IMG/VR virus record: IMGVR_UViG_2778260996_000020
Coordinates: 1-28,407 of that record
Source of the DNA: a virus
Lineage: Duplodnaviria > Heunggongvirae > Uroviricota > Caudoviricetes
Reading direction: 5' to 3' (one strand)
Length of the DNA stretch: 28,407 bases
Shown here: piece after piece, positions 16,773 to 28,407 of the stretch
Numbering within the stretch: the first letter of the stretch is position 1
Layout: the number at the start of each line of letters is the position of its first letter
The notes under the pieces: generated by a model
Told to the model about the DNA's origin: nothing
The model's input: only the letters and a program-made list of their open reading frames with translations
Databases searched by the model: none
Made by a program: the position numbers and the translations under genes

Positions 16773-16817
16773 TTAATCACCTTTAATTAATTGGGGGCAT
16801 TGCGCCCCCGTTGGTTA

Positions 16818-18329
16818 TTAGGGATCGGCTGGGGAATTTTTTTCTTCACCCTCGCCATTAACGATAATATTTAGTGCGCTCTTTTCGGCTTGAATCTCTG
16901 AGAATACTTTTTCAGGATCATCACCACGTTCTAATATAACGGCAGTACGTGATTTAAGTCCTTTATCAATTAAAGCAATCTCGGCGTTTACGTCTTTAAT
17001 AGGATCGACGGATTCAAAACGCGGACGAATAATAGTAGTGTTGTCGATAATATGCGGAATTGCAGTAATACGAATCGGAACAATACCACGCGCGGAATAA
17101 TGGCGTAGATATGCTTCGAAAATTGGCAATACCACTGTTTCAATTAATTTGTTTTGCAGTGCTTTAATGCGGTTACGCTGAGTTAATTCACCAAAACGTG
17201 CGGCTGAGTAGTTGATCTGTGAACAATCTCCTGTTAAGCCCTGTTTAAACACGCCAAGACCCATCGCTATATGGGTGAACATGCCATCGTTGAAGCTGAT
17301 AAAGTCATCACCGTTTTGCGTCGCCTGAATACTCTTGATCGTTGCCCCTTCCGGCAATTCCTGAATAGTACCAGGTGCAAAATCCTGTACTACTTCCGGC
17401 GCTTGATATTGTTCATCCTCTTCACCAGTATCAAAATCGTCACCAGAATCTTTCGGACGTTCAATAAAGCCCATAGAGCTAGCTGCAATACGTTTCTGGA
17501 TGATCGCGGTTTCGCGGAACGCTTCTTGATGAGCAATATCCTTAATCACTGGCAGGAAGTCAGTCACACCACGTAAACTTTCCGCGCACAGTGGCTGGTA
17601 GTAGTGGCACACCTGAGAAGCATCTACGCGATAATTTTCGCCAGTGTAGGTCTGAGTCAGTAGATTGATTTTTCTAAACCAGTATGCTACAGGGCGCATT
17701 GTTTCTACGTCATACTCAATCCCTTGAAAGATCGCGCGGTCTTTGCTTATTTCACGACTAAGCGACCAGTCGCACCTATCAGCAGACAGAATAGAAACTT
17801 GTAACTCGTTGTTTTCTTTGGTTAAAACGATGAAGCATTCTCCACCCTGAACACGTTCAGATTCTGCCATTGCCAGCATTTCACGGAAGTTAAAGCGACC
17901 GTTGCGAGAGAAGCGTTTAGCACTCTGCGCCCACTTCCAGAAAGCATTCTCGATCTGCTTATTCAGTGCGGTGTCAAGTTTGCCATTTGATTTAACGATT
18001 GATGGTTTCGGATCAAGCCCCGTACCAACAACTTGGTCAACGATATACTGCTTGTATCGCTTGCCTACAGCATTGTTTATAGCCAGAGTACGACCCTGAT
18101 CATAAAGGCGCTTACCGTTCGATTTGAGAGCCTTATTGAAGGTTCCGGTAATGGTGTCTTGTTGAAGCTGTCCATCAATGCGATCACCGACCAAGCCCAA
18201 AGAACGCTTAGACAAATCTTTCTGGAATTTTTCTACTTGTTTGTCGATAAAGATTTTTTGTTGTTGCTGGCGGTGATTAGTTTTAACTGGAGTTTCTACC
18301 GCCTTTTTGCGTCGAAAAAGATTAAACAT
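16818..18329 (-). CDS. Portal protein (lambda gpB family), 503 aa
   Basis: Position after terminase. Motif HIAMGLGVFKQGLTG...YSAARF resembles the conserved lambda-family portal core (IAAGLGV...YSTAR). Confidence 0.75.
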   Translation of the reverse strand: MFNLFRRKKAVETPVKTNHRQQQQKIFIDKQVEKFQKDLSKRSLGLVGDRIDGQLQQDTITGTFNKALKSNGKRLYDQGRTLAINNAVGKRYKQYIVDQVVGTGLDPKPSIVKSNGKLDTALNKQIENAFWKWAQSAKRFSRNGRFNFREMLAMAESERVQGGECFIVLTKENNELQVSILSADRCDWSLSREISKDRAIFQGIEYDVETMRPVAYWFRKINLLTQTYTGENYRVDASQVCHYYQPLCAESLRGVTDFLPVIKDIAHQEAFRETAIIQKRIAASSMGFIERPKDSGDDFDTGEEDEQYQAPEVVQDFAPGTIQELPEGATIKSIQATQNGDDFISFNDGMFTHIAMGLGVFKQGLTGDCSQINYSAARFGELTQRNRIKALQNKLIETVVLPIFEAYLRHYSARGIVPIRITAIPHIIDNTTIIRPRFESVDPIKDVNAEIALIDKGLKSRTAVILERGDDPEKVFSEIQAEKSALNIIVNGEGEEKNSPADP

Positions 18330-18339
18330 GATTTACCCC

Positions 18340-18837
18340 TTATCGCGTAAGACGTACTTTAATATTTTTAATCGGGCTAATTCCCTGTTTACGTCGTTCG
18401 GCTTGAATTAATTTTGATAACTGACGTTCATAATCGACTTTTAGAGTCTGGAGAACAGCCAATGACTCATAGGCGAAAGTATTCCCTTTCACTGTCATTG
18501 CTGATAATGCGGCTTCGTCCCCAAATAAACGGGCGAAAATAACTTGCTCGATTAAGTCGATAGTTTCCCGCAGATATTCTTTTTTGGATTGTTTGGCGAA
18601 TACTGGCAAAACAGTTAATTCTTGCATCGATACCAGTTCTTCATCAAGAGTAATAACAATGGTCATCTTCCCTTCTGGAAAGTCTAACGTTTTAATCTCG
18701 TGATTAGCCGGAGAATCATCAACCTGATAGATGATACCTTTATTATTATTTCCTACCTGAATTGTTACACCCTCTTCATTCGCCAGCGTGATTTTTTCGC
18801 CTTTACGAATTACTAAGGGAATTAGTTCTAAACTCAT
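18340..18837 (-). CDS. Hypothetical protein between terminase and portal, 165 aa
   Basis: ORF in the position occupied by gpW-type head completion genes in lambda-like phages. No recognisable motif. Confidence 0.45.
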   Translation of the reverse strand: MSLELIPLVIRKGEKITLANEEGVTIQVGNNNKGIIYQVDDSPANHEIKTLDFPEGKMTIVITLDEELVSMQELTVLPVFAKQSKKEYLRETIDLIEQVIFARLFGDEAALSAMTVKGNTFAYESLAVLQTLKVDYERQLSKLIQAERRKQGISPIKNIKVRLTR

Positions 18838-18909
18838 AATTACCCCTTATTTAATTGTTATTGGATTAACAATATTTAGGAGTAAGCCGCCCCGAAGGAC
18901 GGCGAGTTA

Positions 18910-20817
18910 TTAGAACGATGTTACCCAGCTACGGCCTCTATTTGGGCGTCTGGCGATGTTTTGACGTTGCGGTCGTGTGATTGGCTTAGTTTCTTCGATT
19001 TGCTCGTTAGATTGCGATTTAGGAGCTTCTACGGATTCTTCAACAACACGGTTTAAGCTGTCTTTCATTGCAATGAGTTTATCCCATGACATTTTTGAAA
19101 GGACGTAGCGAGAAGCCGCATAGCTATAAACCAGACAGTCGAGAGCCTCGTTTCGGGTACTACCTGGATTTTTCACCCAACGCACGCCAGTAGTAGTACG
19201 CTTGATGGATTCACTCAAAAGCTGATCGAGATAATCATCAGGAACGGTTTCTGATATTTCTAAGCCAATATGAGGATTATCTTTCAGGTTTCTAACCAGC
19301 ATTTCACGAACAGCGGATTTGCCAACGTTAACACCCAACATAAGCAATTCATGACCACCTGTGCGGGTAGGTTTAACCGGAATCACTGGAGCATTACCAG
19401 ATGAACTACCTTTGATCGCGTGTAGGTTCTTCCACTTGCCGCAAATACGGTATCCGGCTTGAGTGAATCGACCGTTCGATGTATCAAGGAAGCTGGCGAG
19501 CATAGGAACACGTTCACCCTTAACGTTATAGAATTTGGTTTTCTTGAAGTTAACCAGACGATCCCAAACAGGTGATTCATATCGTTCACAGTTATGATCG
19601 TAAAAGCTGCGGTGATCCAGAATGTAAACCTTATCTTTCGCTACACCTAAGATGGTAGATTCTGCGCGGTCCAATTGCTGGTCAATTCCTGAACACAAGA
19701 AAATAACGTCATCAGGAATATTCTCGATAGAAACATCTGTTTTGAGTTGTTCCAGTTCATTTGCTTCTACTGCCGTGTCCTGATCGTCGTACACCTTACC
19801 TAATACGGTGTTAAAAAATGATTGTAAATCAAAGGATTGCCACGCATGACTAAAATCAACCACACAAGCGCGGATCGTGCTGAAAGGTGAATACAGACGG
19901 CTGATCCAGAATCCTGCTACCTCACTTTCGCGGGTTGCTCTCCACTCGCCTTGCGCTACTGCCCTGATTCGTTCCCCTTCTGTCCATGCGTTCTTACAGT
20001 GGGGGCAAATATAACGAGCGGTATCAGGATCGGGTAAGTTCTTACCATCGATGTTACGCCATTCAAATTGAACGTTTTCCCACTCGATCACCTGGTGTTC
20101 CCCGCAATGCGGACACGGAACAAAAAACATACGCATATCGCTTGATAACCATTGCTGGTTAATGCTTCCGAGCTTACTGGTCGGGGTACTGGATACGACT
20201 AATCGGCCTTCATCGCCAAAGGTAGTTAAACGGTTAGCAGCCAGTGCCACCGGATCACCTTCTTCTGAGGCTGTAGCAGCATCGATTTCGTCTAGTAGTC
20301 CGACCTTTGCAGTCTTACCGCGCAGGGTTGATGGACTGGTAAGCGATACCATGTACAGGAAGTGATTCGTTTTTAGCTGGAGTTGGTTATTGTTGTTAAC
20401 CGCATTGCGATCATTCTTGTCTGTAACCACGTCTTTTAATGCATCACATGCTTCGATAGACGGTCGGATCTTACCAGCGAGATATTGAGACATTTCTTTA
20501 GCGGTTGATTGTCCGATAATCATATTGCATGGATCGTTAGCCATCTGGTTAAACAGGATGCCATTCAGGATGGTAGTCTTTCCGATCTGCGCACTGGTCA
20601 TCAGAACATACTTTTTCTTGTTCTCAAGGAAAGGAGCATCAATCATACCTTTCTGGAATGACAGCAATTTAACTTTATCCCCAGCTTGAGGACCATCTAC
20701 CAGCACCATATTAGCTTCGCACCATTCCGATGGAAGGAGTTTAGGCGGTGGCGTAATATATTTGGCTGCATTTCTGAGAATCTTTTTTAATTTGGCCTTA
20801 TTAGAAATTAGTTTCAT
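18910..20817 (-). CDS. terL: Terminase large subunit (GpA-like), 635 aa
   Basis: Walker A-like SAQIGKTT and Walker B-like VGLLDEID in the N-terminal ATPase half. Cys-x2-Cys pairs (CPHCGEHQ...CPHCKNAW). Acidic nuclease-like C-terminal half. GAGGGT SD. Confidence 0.85.
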
Positions 20818-20905
20818 GTAATTACCCTCATTACGAAATATGAGAGTATTTATTAAATTGTTGATTTTCTGATAAATACGGGTATTAAGATTTAAGGGGG
20901 GTTGT

Positions 20906-21508
20906 ATGCTAATTAATCAGCAAGAAAGAGATGAATTAGAATTAGCCTTGTCTTGTACCGATCATGAATATCGTTTGCCAGTGAAGCACCATCACAAGAA
21001 GACTGATTACACAACATCTGGGTTTAGCCGTGAGGAAGCTAAACAGATTTTAATCGAGTTGTATCGTGATCATGGGTATACCGATATTCATAACTTCTTT
21101 AAGAAGCATCGCACATCACAGACAGAGTTTCAGCGAGTCCGTGAATGGTTTGATTTTGACATTAAGCGATTCTATCGAGTGGATGACGGTCCTATCTATC
21201 GGTTGCACTGGAAGCCGATCCGAGAAGTGTTGAAACAGAAGAGACTAAATCACGCAATTACACGCTATCGTAACGAGGCTTTCAAGAAAGGCTATGGTGA
21301 TACAAGGGAACTATTCGTTGAACTCGCTAACGTGCGTTATAGCCACTATTACAGGAATCCTAAAGAGTTCTTCGAAGTGCTGCGCAAGGTTGATATAAGT
21401 CGGGGTACATACTATTCACGGTTGAAGAAGTACGGGATTAGGGCAGAGTTCTTTATGAGTATTGACGACGGAGAACTTTTTCCTATAAAATGTAAGTCCT
21501 CTAAATAA
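20906..21508 (+). CDS. Hypothetical basic protein, 200 aa
   Basis: AAGGGGGG SD 6 nt upstream. Arg/Lys/Tyr-rich. Divergent from the terminase gene. Followed by a small HTH gene and a strong terminator. Confidence 0.5.
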
Positions 21509-21543
21509 AGGTGAACATTCACTTTAATTTGGAGAAAATGACT

Positions 21544-21768
21544 ATGACTACTAAAGCTACTCGCGGTCGTCCGGCACGTTTTAATCGTGAACAACTGGCA
21601 GCGATTGTAAAAGCGTACTATCAAGCGCCGAAAGGTAAAGCCGAAAAAGAACAAGTATTGAGTGAACACGGTATTTCAATTGCTCAATTCTACAAATCAC
21701 TCCATAAAGTTGATTTGAAATTCTTTGTTCAGGTTGACGGTGAAATGGTAGAAGCAACAGGAATTTGA
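21544..21768 (+). CDS. Small HTH DNA-binding protein, ~75 aa (paralog of 24965-25144)
   Basis: Track ORF starts at a GTG (21511). The ATG at 21544 has a GGAG SD at 9 nt. N-terminal RGRPARFNREQLAAIVKAYY resembles TetR/transposase-type HTH openings. Terminator follows. Confidence 0.5.
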   Translation: MTTKATRGRPARFNREQLAAIVKAYYQAPKGKAEKEQVLSEHGISIAQFYKSLHKVDLKFFVQVDGEMVEATGI

Positions 21769-21781
21769 TTCGATTCTCTAG

Positions 21782-21808
21782 GCCAATCCTTCGGGGTTGG
21801 CTTTTTTT
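21782..21808 (+). terminator. Intrinsic terminator after small HTH gene
   Basis: GCCAAUCC-UUCG-GGGUUGGC hairpin followed by UUUUUUUAU on the plus strand. Confidence 0.75.
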
Positions 21809-21821
21809 ATACCTACAGATA

Positions 21822-21847
21822 CAAAAAAAGCCCCTGAAATTCAGGGG
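21822..21847 (-). terminator. Intrinsic terminator after Rha-family gene
   Basis: Minus-strand RNA: GCCCCUGAAUUUCAGGGGC hairpin followed by UUUUUUUG. Forms a convergent terminator pair with 21782-21808. Confidence 0.7.
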
Positions 21848-21856
21848 CAAAAATTA

Positions 21857-22699
21857 TTACAGTCCGAAGACTTCCAGTGATCCAACATTCTGGCGAATCA
21901 GCAAAGCAGTGTTATTGACAATTGCTCGTGAGTTGTTCGGCTGTGGCAATTTCAAAGTTGCGGCCTTTTCTTCTTCAAGCAATCCGAGTTTTACGAGATG
22001 CGGGATAGCATCAGCAGTGAACTCGATCTGACCGTGTGCCGACATACGAGCGAACATATAGCCAGGAGGAAGCAGATCATAGCCTTTAGGCTTACCAGAA
22101 GCATCCAGACGACGCTCAAGAACACCAGCAGCACATAAACCTTTCAGAATCATTTGTACCGTCGTAGAGCCTCGTTTTTCGCCTAATAAGCGGCTAAGAC
22201 TGTGTGTGTCGATAGCTTTACGAACATGCAATTCAACCAGTTGTTTCTTTTCTTGAATCAGTTGTTCGTTTGCGGCTTCCAATTCCATTGCCTCACGAAT
22301 CCAGTCGAGCTTAGTCATGTTTGCGTAAGGGTTGATTTGCTGAGAACGCAGTTTTTCATTTTCTTCTTTCAGTCGTTTCCATTCCTGAATAACAACCATT
22401 CGACGCTTAACATCGTAACCAGTAACAAGAGTCAGAGTCATTTCTTCGTCTAAGTGATATACCGGTTCTTTAACAGCATACCCTAAGTTATTGATTCTCT
22501 CGACAAATTCAGTTTTGAGCTGATCGATAATACCTAAAGATTCGTACATTTCGCGAATATCGCGCATTACATTGCTGTGTTTCTTTCCGGTAAATTCAGC
22601 GATCTGACGAGAAGACATGGTCAGCGGTTTGGTGTTATCAACAACCAGAGACACGGAAGCAGTTTTAACAGCAGTATTCATAGCAGTAACAGTATTCAT
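21857..22699 (-). CDS. Rha-family phage regulatory protein (antirepressor-like), 280 aa
   Basis: N-terminal LTMSSRQIAEFTGKKHSNVMRDIREM matches the Rha/pRha domain signature. Coiled-coil middle. AAGGGG SD. Own terminator downstream. Confidence 0.7.
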   Translation of the reverse strand: MNTVTAMNTAVKTASVSLVVDNTKPLTMSSRQIAEFTGKKHSNVMRDIREMYESLGIIDQLKTEFVERINNLGYAVKEPVYHLDEEMTLTLVTGYDVKRRMVVIQEWKRLKEENEKLRSQQINPYANMTKLDWIREAMELEAANEQLIQEKKQLVELHVRKAIDTHSLSRLLGEKRGSTTVQMILKGLCAAGVLERRLDASGKPKGYDLLPPGYMFARMSAHGQIEFTADAIPHLVKLGLLEEEKAATLKLPQPNNSRAIVNNTALLIRQNVGSLEVFGL

Positions 22700-22788
22700 A
22701 ATTAAATTCCCCTTAAACGGTTTAGTGATATTGATCCTCCTAGTTCCGGCAGCATCACCGGAACATTTTTATTTATGATAGAAATTTA

Positions 22789-23121
22789 TTACCAATCGAT
22801 TTCTACTTGGTCTTCTTCATAATAAGGAATCGCATATTCATAACGCCAATTTTCGATGATTTCACGTTCTTCATTAGTAAGAAGGTGATTGTTAACTGGA
22901 GTCGCATTGTGATTACCAGCTTCGAATTGCTCGCGAACTTCCAGCATTGCATGAATACCAGTTAAGGTCATCAGATCAAACGGAACATGCATACTACGGG
23001 AGATAGTTTCACGGGATACGCCCCAATCATTTTCTACATGGCTAGGGGTTACAGAAACGGTTTTGCCGGAGATTTTAACAGTCCAGTCATACAGGGATTT
23101 AGTGATGGTAAATTCTTTCAT
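22789..23121 (-). CDS. Hypothetical protein, 110 aa
   Basis: ORF preceded by SD AAGAGGATG and a near-consensus sigma70 promoter (23178-23206). Confidence 0.5.
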   Translation of the reverse strand: MKEFTITKSLYDWTVKISGKTVSVTPSHVENDWGVSRETISRSMHVPFDLMTLTGIHAMLEVREQFEAGNHNATPVNNHLLTNEEREIIENWRYEYAIPYYEEDQVEIDW

Positions 23122-23177
23122 GTTACATCCTCTTTACAAATCCAGGTCAAATATAATAAAAGTTGTCAAGTGCGATA

Positions 23178-23206
23178 ATCATAAAAAAGTCATAAATTTT
23201 TGTCAA
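23178..23206 (-). promoter_or_regulatory. Near-consensus sigma70 promoter driving the 110 aa gene
   Basis: On the minus strand: TTGACA (23206-23201), 17 nt spacer, TATGAT (23183-23178). Confidence 0.55.
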
Positions 23207-23241
23207 TATACCTTGACAAGACGCCAAAGGGTTGACCTAAC

Positions 23242-23700
23242 TTACAGCATATCTAAGCCTTCATCGTAACCGTAGAAGCCACCGTGAGAAGAGAAAGCGA
23301 TTGGTGCGTAGTCTTCGTCTTCCTCATCTTCTTCATCTTGTTCTGGGGCTTCCTGAGCGGTTTCTTTGCCGTAATCAGCCATAATCTGGTCAAGATCGGC
23401 GATCCCATAGTAAGAGCCTAAATCAACGTCATATTCACGGACTTGAAACGGCAGATCATCACGAACAATAATTGCTGGAATATCGTTGTATTGAAGACGA
23501 CCTTCATCAGTAAAACAGTCGATGATCACAGTAGGACGACCATTTCGTTTTAAAGCGTAGAAAGCAGTTGAGTAGTTGGAGTCTTCGGAATGACGAATGA
23601 TGTTATAACCACGATTAGCGAAAACTTCTAGCATATGGAAGTTGCCATAGTTTTCAGAGTCCAGACCCAGAAGTACGAAAGGAGTTTTAGTATTGATCAT
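23242..23700 (-). CDS. Hypothetical protein with strongly acidic C-terminal tail, 152 aa
   Basis: ORF with AGAGGA SD. C-terminal EQDEEDEEDEDY stretch. Confidence 0.5.
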   Translation of the reverse strand: MINTKTPFVLLGLDSENYGNFHMLEVFANRGYNIIRHSEDSNYSTAFYALKRNGRPTVIIDCFTDEGRLQYNDIPAIIVRDDLPFQVREYDVDLGSYYGIADLDQIMADYGKETAQEAPEQDEEDEEDEDYAPIAFSSHGGFYGYDEGLDML

Positions 23701-23923
23701 AGTGGAAATCCTCTAAAAGAAAGTGAATCAAGTAAGTTCACTATTATTTATAACGAGAATTTTTTATCTATTTGGAAGTGATTGGATTCAGTCGGGCTAA
23801 AGCCCTCCTTCATATATTTGATTAAATCATCATCAAAACGAAGAAGTATCTTTAGAATATAAGAATCTTTCTTTTGGAGAAATTATAATCAGGAAGCAAT
23901 TTAGCAACCGAAGGTTGCAATCC

Positions 23924-23969
23924 CGAAGGGATACCAATCACTTTCTAGAAAGTGATTGGTATCCCTTCG
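23924..23969. repeat. 46 bp perfect palindrome
   Basis: CGAAGGGATACCAATCACTTTC-TA-GAAAGTGATTGGTATCCCTTCG; every position is self-complementary. A GCAACCGAAGGTTGC hairpin lies immediately upstream. Confidence 0.9.
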
Positions 23970-24277
23970 TTCGTTTACTAGAATCAGTTAGTAACTAGTA
24001 TTAAATCCCTTTCTAAGAAAATCCTTTCAAAAGCGAGTGAACGCCGTAGGCGTGAACGTGAGCGAAGCGAACTATCCAATCCCTTTCGAATCCTGCTTGC
24101 AGGTCTTAGAAGGTGTTGATGGGCGCTTCGCGCACGGCTACGCCGTATTCTTTTTGCGAGATCTTTCTTGAACGTAGTGAGAGAAAACGAGCAAAAAGGA
24201 GAACGTTAGTTCGAATTTTATATTCTATGGTCTGTGGGGTGAAATGTCTTTCAAGATCATACACTTATGAGATTGAA

Positions 24278-24399
24278 GTGTAGGGTTAGTGTAGGTGTGT
24301 AGGTTTCATAGTGTAGGTTTGAGGGTGTTATAGTGTAGGTTTACTGACTAGTGTAGTGTAGGCCAATACCTTTAAAGCGTAGGTTTGTAGTGTAGGTTT
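24278..24399. repeat. Iteron array: about 8 direct copies of (A)GTGTAGGTTT
   Basis: Copies at about 24278, 24290, 24297, 24311, 24333, 24356, 24377 (GCGTAGGTTT) and 24390. All same orientation, irregular 0-14 bp spacing. Confidence 0.85.
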
Positions 24400-24593
24400 T
24401 TCATCAAAAATTTTGATAGAAAATTCTTGTATATTATTTAACCGGAAAATCACCAAAAATCGCTGTAAATGCATGATTTAAAAAGAATTATCAAAAGGTC
24501 GCCGTGCTATAATAGGTTATAAAGGTTGATAATCGTTATCCGCCATTTTCACACAAAAATTTTGATAGTCATTTCTCGCTTAGGTCAAGTGCA

Positions 24594-24622
24594 TTGACAA
24601 CTGTCAAGGATTATTTTATACT
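24594..24622 (+). promoter_or_regulatory. Near-consensus sigma70 promoter for the 59 aa HTH / 339 aa / 80 aa operon
   Basis: TTGACA (24594-24599), 17 nt spacer, TATACT (24617-24622). The -35 lies inside a TTGACAACTGTCAA palindrome. Confidence 0.55.
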
Positions 24623-24964
24623 TTTTCTCATTGGTAGGGGTTGAAATTTTAGAAACAATCCCCATATTGATGATAAACAAGATTTTTTCGTGTATAAATA
24701 CATGCATGAAATGATTGTTCACTTCTGAAAATCCCCTGATTCACTGTTAACACACACAGCACTGGTTAAACACACAGTGCTTTTTCGATTGAATAATGTA
24801 CGAATTGATTAATTATTAATCTTCTCTTTAGCAATTCGTGCTCCCGCTGATCAGATATACAGTGGTTTTGCAGGGTTTTCTGAAATGACTTTTATAAATA
24901 GAAGTATCGAGGGCGAAAAGCTCTTTTTATTATCCTTATTAATCCACATTTGAGGAATCTACTT

Positions 24965-25144
24965 ATGGCTAGACCTGTTAAGTTTACTCGTGAAATGATT
25001 GTTGATATTGCTAAACGCTTTTATGGCGATACTGAACGAGGCGGCGAGAATTTCTTTAAGAAGGAAGGAATTGATAGAAGCGGATTCTATAAGCTAATGA
25101 AGAAATACGAAATTCAGATAAAGATTAACGTTCAAGTTTGTTAA
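24965..25144 (+). CDS. Small HTH DNA-binding protein, ~59 aa (paralog of 21544-21768)
   Basis: Track ORF starts at TTG (24950). The ATG at 24965 has a TGAGGAA SD. ARPVKFTREMIVDIAKRFY aligns with GRPARFNREQLAAIVKAYY of the paralog. Shared GI...FYK motif. Confidence 0.5.
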   Translation: MARPVKFTREMIVDIAKRFYGDTERGGENFFKKEGIDRSGFYKLMKKYEIQIKINVQVC

Positions 25145-25175
25145 TCCACTTTCACTGAGAATTATACGATGGCTT

Positions 25176-25216
25176 TAAAAATAAAAAGCCTCCCTTGTTG
25201 CAGCAAAGGAGGCTTG
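25176..25216 (-). terminator. Minus-oriented hairpin + T-run (antisense terminator candidate) between small HTH gene and 339 aa gene
   Basis: AAGCCUCC...GGAGGCUU 8 bp stem. On the minus strand it is followed by UUUUUAUUUUU. On the plus strand no U-tract follows. Confidence 0.4.
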
Positions 25217-25260
25217 AAATGAACAATTAAAACTAACACAGCATTCAGGAGTATTTATAA

Positions 25261-26280
25261 ATGAAAAATTCTAAGCGCATCACCTTCAACCTGTTTATTA
25301 AATCCAACGGCAAACTGAACATTACCGTCATGGAAGGTAAAGCAAGCAAACAAGACAAATCCTTTGAAGTAGTATCCGGTAAGACTCTGACCGAAATGCG
25401 TCAGAATGCTGGCATCAAAGACGGTGCTGAATGGCAGATCACTAACCGTTTCGACAAACGTCACGTTAAACCTACACTGGTAGAAGGTGAATCCGTTTAT
25501 TGCTTCGCTCGTGCTGCTAAAGCCGATGAAACTTACTATCTCGCTGTTGTTAAAACTGCTTCCGGCTTCCGTGCTGTAATGCATCACAAGAGCAAGCGTA
25601 ACGAATACGGCGTAGAGACCCAGGAAGTTGCTAAACGCTTCCGTACTGTTGCTACCGAATCCACTGTAAAAGATGTTTCTGGTACTGTTAACACCACTAA
25701 AGGCGGTTCCTTCTACAACCACGCATTACAGGTTACTTCCTCCTTCTTCTGCAAAAAAGAAGCACAGAAAGAAGTTGCTCCGGTAGTAGTTGAAGAAGTT
25801 AAAGAAGAAGTTGCAGTGGTTGAATCTTCCGAAGTTGAAGCACTGAACGCACGCATTGCTGAACTGGAAGCAGAAATGGCAGCAGTTAAAGCAGAAAACG
25901 CATCTCTGAAAGCTGAACTGTCAGCACAGGAAACCACTTTCGAAGTAGCAGCGGTTGAAGTTGAAGCAGTTGAAGAAAAATCCATTGATGAAGAACTGGA
26001 AGAACTCCTTAACTATCGTTGGGGTAACGGTGAAGAAGTAGAACAGAAAGAAGCTGATCCGGTAGTAGTTCCGGTTCCGGTTGAAGCAGAATCCGCACCA
26101 GTTACCAACTTTGAAACACTGCGCAATAACTTTATGGCTAAATTCAAAACCACTTGGGAAGATACCGAAGAAGAACAAGAAGAGATTGAAGTAAACGAAG
26201 ACGAGATCCGCGAAGCACATATGGCACTGCATGACGCTATCTATGACACCAACTACAGCGCCTACGCATACGCAGCTTAA
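25261..26280 (+). CDS. Hypothetical acidic coiled-coil protein, 339 aa, probable highly expressed early protein
   Basis: AGGAG SD. Codon usage strongly biased toward major E. coli-type codons (CTG, CGT, GAA, AAA, GTT, ACC, TCC), unlike neighbouring genes. Central Ala/Glu coiled coil. Acidic C-terminal third. Confidence 0.6.
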   Translation: MKNSKRITFNLFIKSNGKLNITVMEGKASKQDKSFEVVSGKTLTEMRQNAGIKDGAEWQITNRFDKRHVKPTLVEGESVYCFARAAKADETYYLAVVKTASGFRAVMHHKSKRNEYGVETQEVAKRFRTVATESTVKDVSGTVNTTKGGSFYNHALQVTSSFFCKKEAQKEVAPVVVEEVKEEVAVVESSEVEALNARIAELEAEMAAVKAENASLKAELSAQETTFEVAAVEVEAVEEKSIDEELEELLNYRWGNGEEVEQKEADPVVVPVPVEAESAPVTNFETLRNNFMAKFKTTWEDTEEEQEEIEVNEDEIREAHMALHDAIYDTNYSAYAYAA

Positions 26281-26295
26281 TAGAGGGGTGAATCT

Positions 26296-26538
26296 ATGAT
26301 GAATCAAAACAAAGAATTTCTGGGTAATCTGATGTTAGAAATTACCAAAATGAAAGAAAGAATGGTAGCGATGGAATCAGAGATTAAAACACTTAAAGCT
26401 GATAATAAGGCGTTGAGAAAGTCCTTAAAGCTGATTGATGAGACTAATGCGGTTATGATGGATCATGTATTCCCTGAGTGGCGAAATGAAACTAAACCTA
26501 CACAACATAAGAAACTTACACTTCGAATTGTTGCATAA
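26296..26538 (+). CDS. Hypothetical coiled-coil protein, 80 aa
   Basis: GAGGGG SD. Translationally close to the upstream gene. Heptad-like sequence. Confidence 0.5.
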   Translation: MMNQNKEFLGNLMLEITKMKERMVAMESEIKTLKADNKALRKSLKLIDETNAVMMDHVFPEWRNETKPTQHKKLTLRIVA

Positions 26539-26560
26539 AAAAAAGGACTCCGAAGAGTCC
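26537..26560 (-). terminator. Minus-oriented intrinsic terminator
   Basis: Minus-strand RNA: GGACUC-UUCG-GAGUCC followed by UUUUUUUU. Confidence 0.6.
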
Positions 26561-26636
26561 CTAGTAAGTTTAGGTTAGGTTTGCACAACAAAGATGAGGT
26601 TATAATGAACATAATGCTACATTATTCTTTAAAGCC

Positions 26637-26662
26637 AGAAAAATAACCGCCCCGAAGGGCGG
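26637..26662 (-). terminator. Minus-oriented intrinsic terminator
   Basis: Minus-strand RNA: CCGCCC-UUCG-GGGCGG followed by UUAUUUUUCU. Confidence 0.55.
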
Positions 26663-26821
26663 GAGGATTAATACTCAATCTATACTTGTTATGTTTTTAT
26701 GTTGTATAGATCCTGACTATGAAAACACTGTACTGGAAGTGTGTTTTTATGGCTTTTAATCGGGAATCCTCAAAGAAGATCCCCTGTTAATAACCATAAG
26801 GAGAAAAGGCAGATTACACTA

Positions 26822-26995
26822 TTATTTAGTATCCTTTTTACAGCAACTAAAAAGAATAAACAAAAAGAAGCATACCCAGCCGTAAGGCGTACCGATTAGA
26901 AATTTGAAAAACACCACCAGCGATATAAAAATCAATTTAATGCCAGCGACGATAGTCAAAAACAGCAGAGTAGCAAAGTAGACAAAAAGATCCAT
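26822..26995 (-). CDS. Small hydrophobic membrane protein, 57 aa (not in ORF track)
   Basis: Hand-translated: MDLFVYFATLLFLTIVAGIKLIFISLVVFFKFLIGTPYGWVCFFLFILFSCCKKDTK. AGAGGA SD 7 nt upstream of ATG. Two predicted hydrophobic helices. Confidence 0.4.
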   Translation of the reverse strand: MDLFVYFATLLFLTIVAGIKLIFISLVVFFKFLIGTPYGWVCFFLFILFSCCKKDTK

Positions 26996-27048
26996 AGATA
27001 ATCCTCTTTGAAAACGACCATCATCTATAGTTCAATTCATCGATTTAA

Positions 27049-27150
27049 TTAATGATACTTGAAAGCGTTACACAAAGTAGAAATGCCAATATGTGCCAGT
27101 GAATATACGATAGTTAATCCTACAGCCAGATAAATCAAAAATTCAACCAT
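27049..27150 (-). CDS. Small hydrophobic peptide, 33 aa (not in ORF track)
   Basis: Hand-translated: MVEFLIYLAVGLTIVYSLAHIGIFYFVNAFKYH. GAGGA SD 8 nt upstream. Single predicted TM helix. Sits directly after a hairpin terminator. Confidence 0.3.
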   Translation of the reverse strand: MVEFLIYLAVGLTIVYSLAHIGISTLCNAFKYH

Positions 27151-27170
27151 AGGTAAATCCTCAAATAAGA

Positions 27171-27199
27171 AAAAGGTTAGCGGGGGATGTTCTCCCCCG
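27171..27199 (-). terminator. Weak terminator downstream of Nu1-like gene
   Basis: 7 bp GC stem (CGGGGGA/UCCCCCG) followed, after CUAACC, by UUUUUCUUAUUU on the minus strand. Confidence 0.4.
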
Positions 27200-27250
27200 T
27201 AGACGTTGACCAGCTCAACATCCTTCACGTATATATTTAGTATCTAATTT

Positions 27251-27802
27251 TTAAGACACATCAAATTCATCGTCTTCTTCTGGTTCTTGTTCCGGTTCAT
27301 CCATTAATGGTAATTCTTCTTCCTCGTCTTCTCCCAAATCTGCATTTTCGAACAAGTCCCCTACTTCATTTAAACGACGCTCGATAATCTCTCTTAGCTT
27401 ATTCTTCAATGTTTTCTGGTCATTGGCAGATTCGAGAATTTCTAGGGCATCGATTGTGGCGATCTGCAAAATAGTCTGCTTCACTTTCCCGCAATATTCC
27501 GCTAGCTCCTGCTCCACATACCCGACGGGAATCAGGAGATTCATCGCTTCCTGGTTCTCTCGTTCGGCTGCATCTGCTAATGCTCTCTCACGGCGTAATT
27601 TCTCTACGTCGATTTGTTCCTTGACAGTAGTTTCTTTAAGCGGGTTGATGATATTTTTCAAGACCCATTCTGTTCCTTCTTTGGCTGGCACGCGGCGGGT
27701 ATTGGTATTAAATGGCATTCCTCGTTCTTGCCATTTCTTAGCGGCGTTAATTGTATAGCCGTATAAACGGGAAATTTCTGTAAGGGTTAATTCTTCTTTC
27801 AT
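27251..27802 (-). CDS. Nu1-like DNA-binding protein (candidate terminase small subunit), ~183 aa
   Basis: Start placed at second ATG (27802), which has a GGAGGA SD. N-terminal LTEISRLYGYTINAAKKWQERGMPF resembles the winged-HTH of lambda Nu1 (IRTIQNWQEQGMPV). Followed by EKLRRE coiled coil and acidic C-terminus. Confidence 0.5.
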   Translation of the reverse strand: MKEELTLTEISRLYGYTINAAKKWQERGMPFNTNTRRVPAKEGTEWVLKNIINPLKETTVKEQIDVEKLRRERALADAAERENQEAMNLLIPVGYVEQELAEYCGKVKQTILQIATIDALEILESANDQKTLKNKLREIIERRLNEVGDLFENADLGEDEEEELPLMDEPEQEPEEDDEFDVS

Positions 27803-28101
27803 CCGGTTATCCTCCATTAAATTTGCGTAAAATTATTTATCTGATCTGCGCATTCAGGAGAGCGCCTAAAACGCTTTATAACGAAGGGAAAGATCGAGGC
27901 ATGGAAAGGGATTGGCGGGTGTTAATAGTCGCGTAGCGACCGCGCTGGTGGGCTGCACTGCACCTGTTTTGAAATCTCACACGTACATCAAAAACCGGGG
28001 TGCCGAAAACTCCCTTTATTTCACCCGTGGAACAGTACCTTTTGATTTGGTCAAGTCTTTTTTATAAATAATCGAAAATATTTTTCACGCGAGGGCAAAT
28101 C

Positions 28102-28407
28102 ATGAAGACTAAAGATATTAAGATTGAATTTGAAACTGTTGATGACGTTCGGGAACATCGCATTGATTCTACTGGCTGCATCTTCCAGCTTACTAACTCC
28201 CCTATTGGATTGATTATCTATGTAGCAGAAGATGACGTGTACGCTATATGGGATGGACAGGATGAGTTTAAAGGCGGGAATAGCCATCTGATCAATACTC
28301 ATGAGGGATTTGATCCGACTCCTGTCTGTATGCTTGCTTATCACGTAACACTGGATGAACTACCGGAAGCAAGCGCGCGTATCCGTAGAATGAAAGACAT
28401 TAAGTGA
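28102..28407 (+). CDS. Hypothetical protein, 101 aa
   Basis: Complete ORF with GAGGG SD. Stop is the last codon of the window. Confidence 0.45.
   Translation: MKTKDIKIEFETVDDVREHRIDSTGCIFQLTNSPIGLIIYVAEDDVYAIWDGQDEFKGGNSHLINTHEGFDPTPVCMLAYHVTLDELPEASARIRRMKDIK

Follow-up and report, generated by a model that had tools for sequence, protein, structure and literature searches.

A perfect 46-bp palindrome in an Escherichia coli prophage, probably a young allele of a conserved quasipalindrome

Template-switch mutations at quasipalindromes are dependent on replication and are suppressed by the exonucleases ExoI and ExoVII. In E. coli, such mutation has been demonstrated at thyA and in lacZ reporters (PMC7202029). 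Imperfect inverted repeats were also proposed to be corrected preferentially to perfect ones, which would explain why perfect repeats persist in proteobacteria (PMC5941160). In the current study, a perfect palindrome of 46 bp in the intergenic DNA of an E. coli prophage was compared with its relatives, and the comparison indicates that it is probably a young allele, derived from a conserved 47-nt quasipalindrome by templated correction, i.e. quasipalindrome-associated template switching.

The locus has much in common with the described hotspots (Ripley 1982 model; thyA; lacZ QP5 and QP6; PMC7202029). An imperfect repeat became perfect through clustered changes of several bases that include an indel, every change is the complement of the opposite arm, and the host is E. 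coli. Unlike the reporter alleles, which were selected, this is a natural prophage allele recognised by comparison. In addition, the classic hotspots show one patch, whereas here five imperfections were removed in two patches of opposite direction, which requires at least two events or a repair-type process. The model of Lavi et al. 2018 (PMC5941160), in which template switching turns imperfect inverted repeats perfect, is common to both cases, but the short repeats considered there are perfect across species, while in the present case conservation is seen for the imperfect state and the perfect one is private.

The window, i.e. the whole stretch of 28,407 nt that was analysed, belongs to a chromosomal E. 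coli prophage of about 37 kb and carries genes for a GpA-type large terminase (18910-20817, minus strand), a portal protein, a protease-capsid fusion and a Rha/Ant-family protein. The palindrome lies inside a stretch of 1.25 kb without long ORFs (23701-24949), which is flanked by a leftward 152-aa gene and by rightward genes of 64, 339 and 80 aa. No informative match in Pfam, PHROGs, NCBIfam or the PDB sequences was obtained for the ORFs of 152, 339, 64, 80, 85, 110 and 200 aa, and a tRNA search found none. The exact 152-aa protein occurs on chromosomal contigs of E. coli, next to either ghrA/ycdX/phoH/efeB or ydcP/yncJ/hicAB. The region was found in 58 of 5426 complete E. coli genomes, at 61 places that are all chromosomal, and gave no match to GenBank phages or PLSDB plasmids by megablast; the representative E. 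coli genome is without the prophage. A contig set with one genome per species yielded neither a relative of the 152-aa protein nor a match to the conserved hairpin pattern.

The palindrome (features are collected in the table) is its own reverse complement, with 100% complementary arms and no mismatch. About 4e-10 such palindromes are expected by chance in uniform random sequence of the window length, and no other long close inverted repeat was detected in the window, the next best having arms of 15–16 nt. The earlier note was therefore right that the sequence is real and far beyond chance, and the scan for uniqueness that it had proposed supports it. Its layout of 22+2+22 bp has to be corrected, as the arms are 23 nt each (23924-23946, CGAAGGGATACCAATCACTTTCT; 23947-23969, AGAAAGTGATTGGTATCCCTTCG) and abut with a spacer of 0 nt. 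Copies resembling an arm (up to three mismatches) were absent elsewhere in the window and from 100 shuffles.

Folded as a single strand, the sequence forms 21 pairs around an AT-rich centre and closes with a CTAG (RNA: CUAG) loop on either strand. The predicted free energy is -22.9 kcal/mol for DNA (z about -11) and -34 kcal/mol for RNA (z -10.3). The cruciform or RNA hairpin suggested in the earlier note is thus very stable on paper, but it has 21 pairs rather than 22, and the ancestral form described below folds weakly. The UUCG-type loop that had been expected on the minus transcript does not belong to it; read on the minus strand, the small hairpins next to it (23904-23918 and 23920-23932) both have UUC(G) loops. 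The latter hairpin shares the end of the left arm and would therefore compete with the long hairpin in the derived allele.

Table. Features of the non-coding region around the palindrome (positions are those of the window)
Feature	Positions	Strand	Remarks
Perfect palindrome, 46 bp	23924-23969	.	Derived allele of a 47-nt quasipalindrome
Left-arm inner patch	23939-23940	.	AC to CA (AATACC to AATCAC); pairs with right-arm GTG; two mismatches fixed
Right-arm outer patch	23959-23964	.	GTTACTCAC to GGTATCCC; T to G, C lost, A to C
RRAAGTGAWT copy GGAAGTGATT	23774-23783	+	Right-arm-like; semi-conserved in relatives
RRAAGTGAWT copy GAAAGTGAAT	23719-23728	+	
Block right of the variable junction, conserved in all structural alleles	23975-24036	.	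-10-like TAGAAT (23979-23984) and two AATNCCTTTC repeats
Small hairpin GCAACC-GAA-GGTTGC	23904-23918	+	Conserved C-GNA-G triloop; loop GCA in some relatives
Small hairpin ATCCC-GAA-GGGAT	23920-23932	+	Conserved; its 3' half doubles as the outer end of the left arm
Iteron array (TAGTGTAGGTTT-type)	24270-24400 (about)	+	Co-varies with the 339-aa protein, not with palindrome type

Relatives were sampled from 19 IMG/VR loci (found through the 152-aa protein), ten draft or Logan assemblies with the exact 152-aa protein and one complete genome. A further 25 loci were collected with a degenerate DNA pattern that accepted ancestral, intermediate and derived forms equally. The perfect palindrome was absent from all collected relatives, including draft assemblies with 100% identical flanking genes, and the exact perfect core was absent from the viral and metagenome contig collections. 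When conservation was examined among related genomes, as the earlier note had proposed, only one near-identical sister assembly (see below) shared the perfect form. This is the outcome that the note itself had named as speaking against its proposal.

The commonest state, type A, is a quasipalindrome of 47 nt in which CGAAGGGATACCAATACCTTTCT is followed by AGAAAGTGATTGTTACTCACTTCG; it was seen at 41 loci (34 distinct contigs after removal of duplicates). Three minor variants of type A occur, among them an extra A in GGGATAACC and TTGATAC, and none of them improves the pairing. Among complete E. coli genomes, 55 carried the 121-nt segment with a best identity of 95.9%, i.e. five differences, and 28 gave full-length matches. 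The fold of the quasipalindrome contains four mismatches (G·A, C·T, A·G and C·T) and one bulged C, with a predicted DNA energy of -6.1 kcal/mol (z -2.2). The corresponding RNA has no single-hairpin fold (-9.6 kcal/mol, z -1.5). Judged from this distribution, the perfect palindrome appears to be a recent allele private to one small lineage, and the imperfect form appears to be ancestral.

In a second structural state, type B, the left arm is kept as far as ACCTTTC and is followed by ATGATCATTAAAGTGAT and 0–50 extra bases. Twelve loci showed this state at the equivalent of 23946-23975 of the window (L002-L005, L007-L009, L012, L016, L018, L019 and L031), and these alleles contain one or two copies of a unit composed of AAAGTGAT, CTAGAATCA and TAGTAAC. 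Homology between the alleles is lost no more than a few bases away from the palindrome centre, and the junction of types A and B suggests unequal recombination between short repeats. A third arrangement was found in L030/L062 (GCA_017761045.1), where 130 nt, equivalent to 23946-24075 of the window, are deleted between two CCAAT(N)CC(C)TTTC repeats. As a result, the quasipalindrome is without its right half and the first hairpins are missing; apart from this, the prophage and the window share 99.4% identity.

The derived allele differs very little from its closest relatives. Between 23172 and 24367, the window and L027/L028 show only five differences, all inside the repeat; they span 26 nt, and the 767 nt and 403 nt to either side are identical. 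The window has C for A at 23939, A for C at 23940, G for T at 23959 and C for A at 23964, and has lost a single C between 23961 and 23962. The same five differences were present in L029, which is 99.8% identical to the window over 16789-24036. Two further features of L029, the extra A in GGGATAACC and a set of four differences at 23991-24002, are common to a subgroup of the relatives.

Each of the five changes removes exactly one imperfection of the ancestral state, and the edit distance from ancestor to derived allele is five. The right-arm outer patch is now complementary to GGGATACC of the left arm, so that two mismatches and one bulge have disappeared. For five or more of nine differences to lie within a stretch of 46 nt, P is about 4e-5, and none of 3e6 random sets of four substitutions and one deletion gave a perfect palindrome. 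Chance is not a credible source of the five changes.

Perfect palindromes are known to cause difficulties for assemblers, and this one was seen only in the window and in one short-read assembly, so that an assembly or polishing artefact had to be considered. The window flanks are collinear with the relatives on both sides, and therefore no fold-back chimera is present. The independent Logan assembly ERR13952777 (L064) agrees with the derived allele at 23940, 23959 and 23964 and in the deletion, and its identity to the window is 99.955% over 23940-28407 (2 mismatches in 4468 positions). Because of this second occurrence and the collinear flanks, an artefact is very improbable. The contig of ERR13952777 starts seven bases left of the palindrome centre, with ACTTTCT followed by AGAAAGTGATTGGTATCCCTTCG; such a break within a perfect palindrome would be the expected behaviour of a k-mer assembler. 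Short-read contigs of this prophage tend to end in the palindrome (L064) or in the iteron array (L065 and L066), and draft assemblies will often miss or split this region.

The changes have the character of templated correction: an ancestral imperfect repeat is present, the changes are clustered and directional, and an indel is among them. They do not form a single contiguous patch, as the inner left arm was matched to the right arm and the outer right arm was matched to the left. Because of these opposite directions, one simple switch is insufficient, and two events or hairpin-directed repair are needed. In the proposed pathway, the nascent strand would fold back during replication and copy the opposite arm. 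A first event would use the right arm as the template to correct the two inner mismatches of the left arm (AC to CA), so that the perfect core, 12 bp at the outset (CTTTCTAGAAAG), would reach 24 bp. Fold-back, now more stable, would then favour a second event, in which the outer right arm would be corrected from the left (T to G, loss of C, A to C). Alternatively, hairpin-directed repair could have made all changes in one episode. From the pattern of changes we infer how the allele arose in replication, how many events occurred and in what order, and that the outcome is likely neutral.

The ancestral fold-back reaches only about -6 kcal/mol, which means that the first switch would not have been especially favoured. 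The possible one-patch intermediates are CCAATCACTTTCTAGAAAGTGATTGTTACTC and CCAATACCTTTCTAGAAAGTGATTGGTATCC, and neither was found among the 41 loci (34 distinct contigs) or the complete genomes. Patch conversion from an unsampled donor is a conceivable source of the same changes, and selection for a symmetric protein site could produce an identical result. One long switch between the strands was worked out by hand as well; it gives AGAAAGGTATTGG on the right arm, which mismatches the window, and was rejected.

The template-switch process itself is already known, and the palindrome is a new natural example of it, in which five imperfections were removed by five changes, an indel included, with the ancestor visible in dozens of genomes. 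It may serve as a natural control for template-switch models, and for annotation pipelines that call long palindromes operators, terminators or tel sites. Even a conspicuous palindrome without any mismatch does not have to indicate a functional site in a phage genome.

No conserved role is supported by the comparison, since the perfect form is private and the ancestral fold is weak, and the palindrome is read as a mutational footprint rather than a conserved functional site: its non-randomness appears to be mutational, and no conserved function seems to require perfection. The ancestral sequence is unlikely to be a structural hairpin; two short plus-strand motifs that recur nearby, CCAATNCCTTTC and RRAAGTGAWT, seem to have met there by chance, at a junction prone to rearrangement. 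With the perfection of the repeat, the derived allele would have gained a high potential for hairpin or cruciform formation, and RRAAGTGAWT would be present a second time, in inverted orientation. Both RRAAGTGAWT and AATNCCTTTC may be protein sites. The latter occurs at 23936, 24004, 24019, 24078, 24243 and 24365. The recurrence of a half-site near 23790, mentioned in the earlier note, holds for GTGATTGG, but its position is 23778-23785, inside AAGTGATTGG (23776-23785). A composite motif CCTTTC-N(1-10)-AAGYGA had one match, which was not significant.

A regulatory effect was kept as the main rival to mutational origin without function, because perfection adds an inverted motif copy and shortens the spacer of a promoter-like site. 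In its broad form, the perfected palindrome would be an adaptive regulatory or origin allele in a prophage family with no recognisable repressor or replication genes. The non-coding region would represent a novel type of control or origin region, composed of RRAAGTGAWT and CCAATNCCTTTC repeats, of strand-switched C-GNA-G triloop hairpins that cassettes of RB49-type phages also have, and of swappable modules of iterons and 339-aa protein. A perfect dyad would then alter the binding of a putative dimeric factor, or the formation of a cruciform. This reading is considered unlikely, and the same holds for its narrower version, an 'operator-up' allele selected for two identical half-sites (GAAAGTGATTGG) upstream of a promoter and bound by a dimeric phage or host protein. 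RRAAGTGAWT is indeed over-represented (five copies in the window against 1.2 expected), with four copies within 23719-23957; three of these start at 23719, 23774 and 23948, and perfection created the inverted copy at 23936-23945. A dimeric protein, as suggested in the earlier note, may thus bind here. A weak promoter-like sequence, TTGGTA-17-TAGAAT, overlaps the right arm, its spacer having been reduced from 18 to 17 by the 1-nt deletion, and TAGAAT is kept in all alleles. The locus thus resembles the dyad operators of temperate phages in having symmetry upstream of a promoter-like site and a half-site motif that recurs nearby. Unlike such operators, however, it has relatives without symmetry, a spacing that varies by allele and no identified cognate protein. 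The left half reads ACC in all relatives against CAC in the window, so that half-sites and spacing are not conserved as in a dyad operator; type B inserts 8–9 extra bases between the half-site-like motifs, and L030 is without the right half. Moreover, the outer corrected bases (GGTATCCCTTCG) lie outside the recurring motif, and family searches recognised no DNA-binding domain in the flanking ORFs other than that of the Rha-family protein. The neighbouring proteins of 152, 64 and 339 aa are 100% identical in relatives with the ancestral allele, and a co-evolved binding partner is therefore not indicated.

Other functions that have been attributed to long palindromes fit the data less readily. 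The stability of the RNA fold, together with a consensus scan that flagged the derived allele as terminator-like on the plus strand with the tail TTCGTTTACT, could point to a 21-bp hairpin acting as a terminator, an RNase III site or a stabiliser. This is quite improbable, as the ancestral RNA does not form one hairpin, compensatory variation is absent among the variants of the relatives, the T-tail is poor on the plus strand and missing on the minus strand, and the matches in Rfam were limited to miRNA look-alikes that the hairpin had triggered and that scored below threshold (27.7 bits, with a gathering score of 90). The clustering of an AT-rich palindrome centre, iterons and C-GNA-G triloops in one 1.25-kb non-coding region would suit a cruciform or ssDNA hairpin linked to an origin and acting with the iterons, e.g. 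in unwinding or priming, like the ssi sites borne on inverted repeats in iteron plasmids. This reading is highly doubtful, since the A/B type assorts independently of iteron type and 339-aa protein, the perfect form is private and the right half can be deleted in the otherwise intact prophage L030. The palindrome was described as next to the iterons, and they do share one non-coding region, but are about 300 nt apart. A target of a DNA-processing enzyme, i.e. a protelomerase site (telRL-like, as in N15), a recombinase core or cosN, is close to refuted. Phage protelomerase substrates are perfect palindromes of 40–56 bp, and the prophage encodes a GpA-type terminase, an enzyme that cuts cos sites. 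Like telRL of N15 (and the sites of PY54 and phiKO2), the sequence is a long perfect palindrome in an enterobacterial temperate phage, near replication-type repeats; unlike them, it belongs to an integrated prophage rather than a linear plasmid, has no protelomerase gene beside it and is not kept among related phages. In the complete genome of strain UTME-9, the prophage (about 37 kb) splits ycdX, and its annotation contains no replication, repressor or protelomerase gene; a large serine recombinase, encoded at the far end and about 30 kb away from the palindrome, is the sole recombinase in the annotation. The region is found on chromosomes only and never on plasmids, and nearby contig ends lie at differing positions that coincide with module junctions. 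A protelomerase or tel site and a cos end were accordingly rejected.

The non-coding region of this prophage family is a more promising object than the palindrome, with its iterons co-varying with an ORFan protein and hairpin cassettes common to T4-like Krischvirus. GNA triloops closed by a C-G pair are unusually stable in DNA, and five of the seven C-GNA-G triloop hairpins of the window are located in 23904-24146. They lie on the plus strand at 23904, 23920 and 24041, and then on the minus strand at 24123 and 24134. An alternative module in L029/L041 has other stems with the same loop type (GCCAC-GCA-GTGGC and CGTC-GCA-GACG). The plus-strand sequence 24123-24155 was scored as terminator-like; it consists of the adjacent hairpins GCGC-TTC-GCGC and ACGGC-TAC-GCCGT followed by ATTCTTTTTG, and in the alternative module the second stem has one compensatory pair (GGGC..GCCC) with the T-run kept. 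Together with TAGAAT at 23979-23984, this element could delimit a putative plus-strand RNA of about 165 nt.

The type of iteron showed perfect co-variation with the 339-aa protein (25261-26280) over loci L001-L057. Loci with a homologue of this protein had 8–14 GTGTAGG repeats, and loci without one had 5–9 CAGGGGCAA repeats, e.g. L029, which encodes a 320-aa protein at this place. Iterons and 339-aa protein look like an initiator/origin pair, or a similar specificity pair, that swaps as a module. Since the A/B type assorts independently of the iteron type, the palindrome is not part of this specificity module. Among the best 120 homologues listed for the 339-aa protein, all were at least 92% identical and came from E. 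coli or Shigella, with no detectable family.

A distant blastn search against GenBank phages revealed one similarity only, that of a conserved 84-nt block immediately left of the palindrome (23809-23892) to intergenic DNA without annotation in T4-type phages of the genus Krischvirus (RB49-like), with 76–82% identity (L058, 1501-1584; L059, 1501-1575). There the block occurs at up to two places per genome, one of them between the tail-fibre genes gp35 and gp36, and is followed, as in the window, by two adjacent triloop hairpins (GTGCC-TAC-GGCAC and TCGC-GAA-GCGA). Inspection by eye revealed no convincing -35/-10 pair in the Krischvirus-like block on either strand. Phages of the RB49/phi1 type contain promoter-early stem-loop (PeSL) cassettes, a repeated intergenic motif with a sigma-70-like promoter and a stem-loop, which mediate module shuffling in RB49-type phages (Arbiol et al. 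2010, PMC2839356). By description, rather than by comparison with PeSL sequences, the block resembles these cassettes, as it sits at a module-exchange junction with hairpins adjacent, but the palindrome itself is outside the segment shared with Krischvirus. The block is possibly a putative PeSL-type mobile promoter/stem-loop cassette common to a temperate E. coli prophage and virulent myoviruses.

Some further properties of the prophage family (window 1-28407; NZ_CP157110.1, 3380617-3417838) were noted. It either integrates into ycdX by means of the large serine recombinase or adjoins yncJ/hicAB, and it has no recognisable repressor, replication or excisionase genes. Its GC content (about 42%) is lower than that of E. 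coli, and most non-structural genes are ORFans. Three small plus-strand proteins (24950-25144, 21511-21768 and 20906-21508) share, as judged by eye, RP-x-(K/R)-F-x-RE at the N or C terminus, with a short stretch of helix-like character after it (ARPVKFTREMIV; GRPARFNREQLAAIV). The arrangement resembles the HTH of recombinases or terminases and had no library match.

The large terminase gene is the first of its operon, with no small subunit gene upstream. The sole gene resembling a small terminase (27251-27817, minus strand; PHROG 57, E 7e-16) is located 6.4 kb from it, the two being separated by oppositely oriented genes and the non-coding region. The closest terminase of a GenBank phage (43% identity; L020) belongs to Escherichia phage DCP80 (PQ671644.1), a record of 141 kb assigned to Straboviridae/Gaprivervirus. 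At the start of this record stand a GpA-type terminase and a block of hypothetical genes, an arrangement that one would not expect in a T4-like phage, and the record may be chimeric or misclassified.
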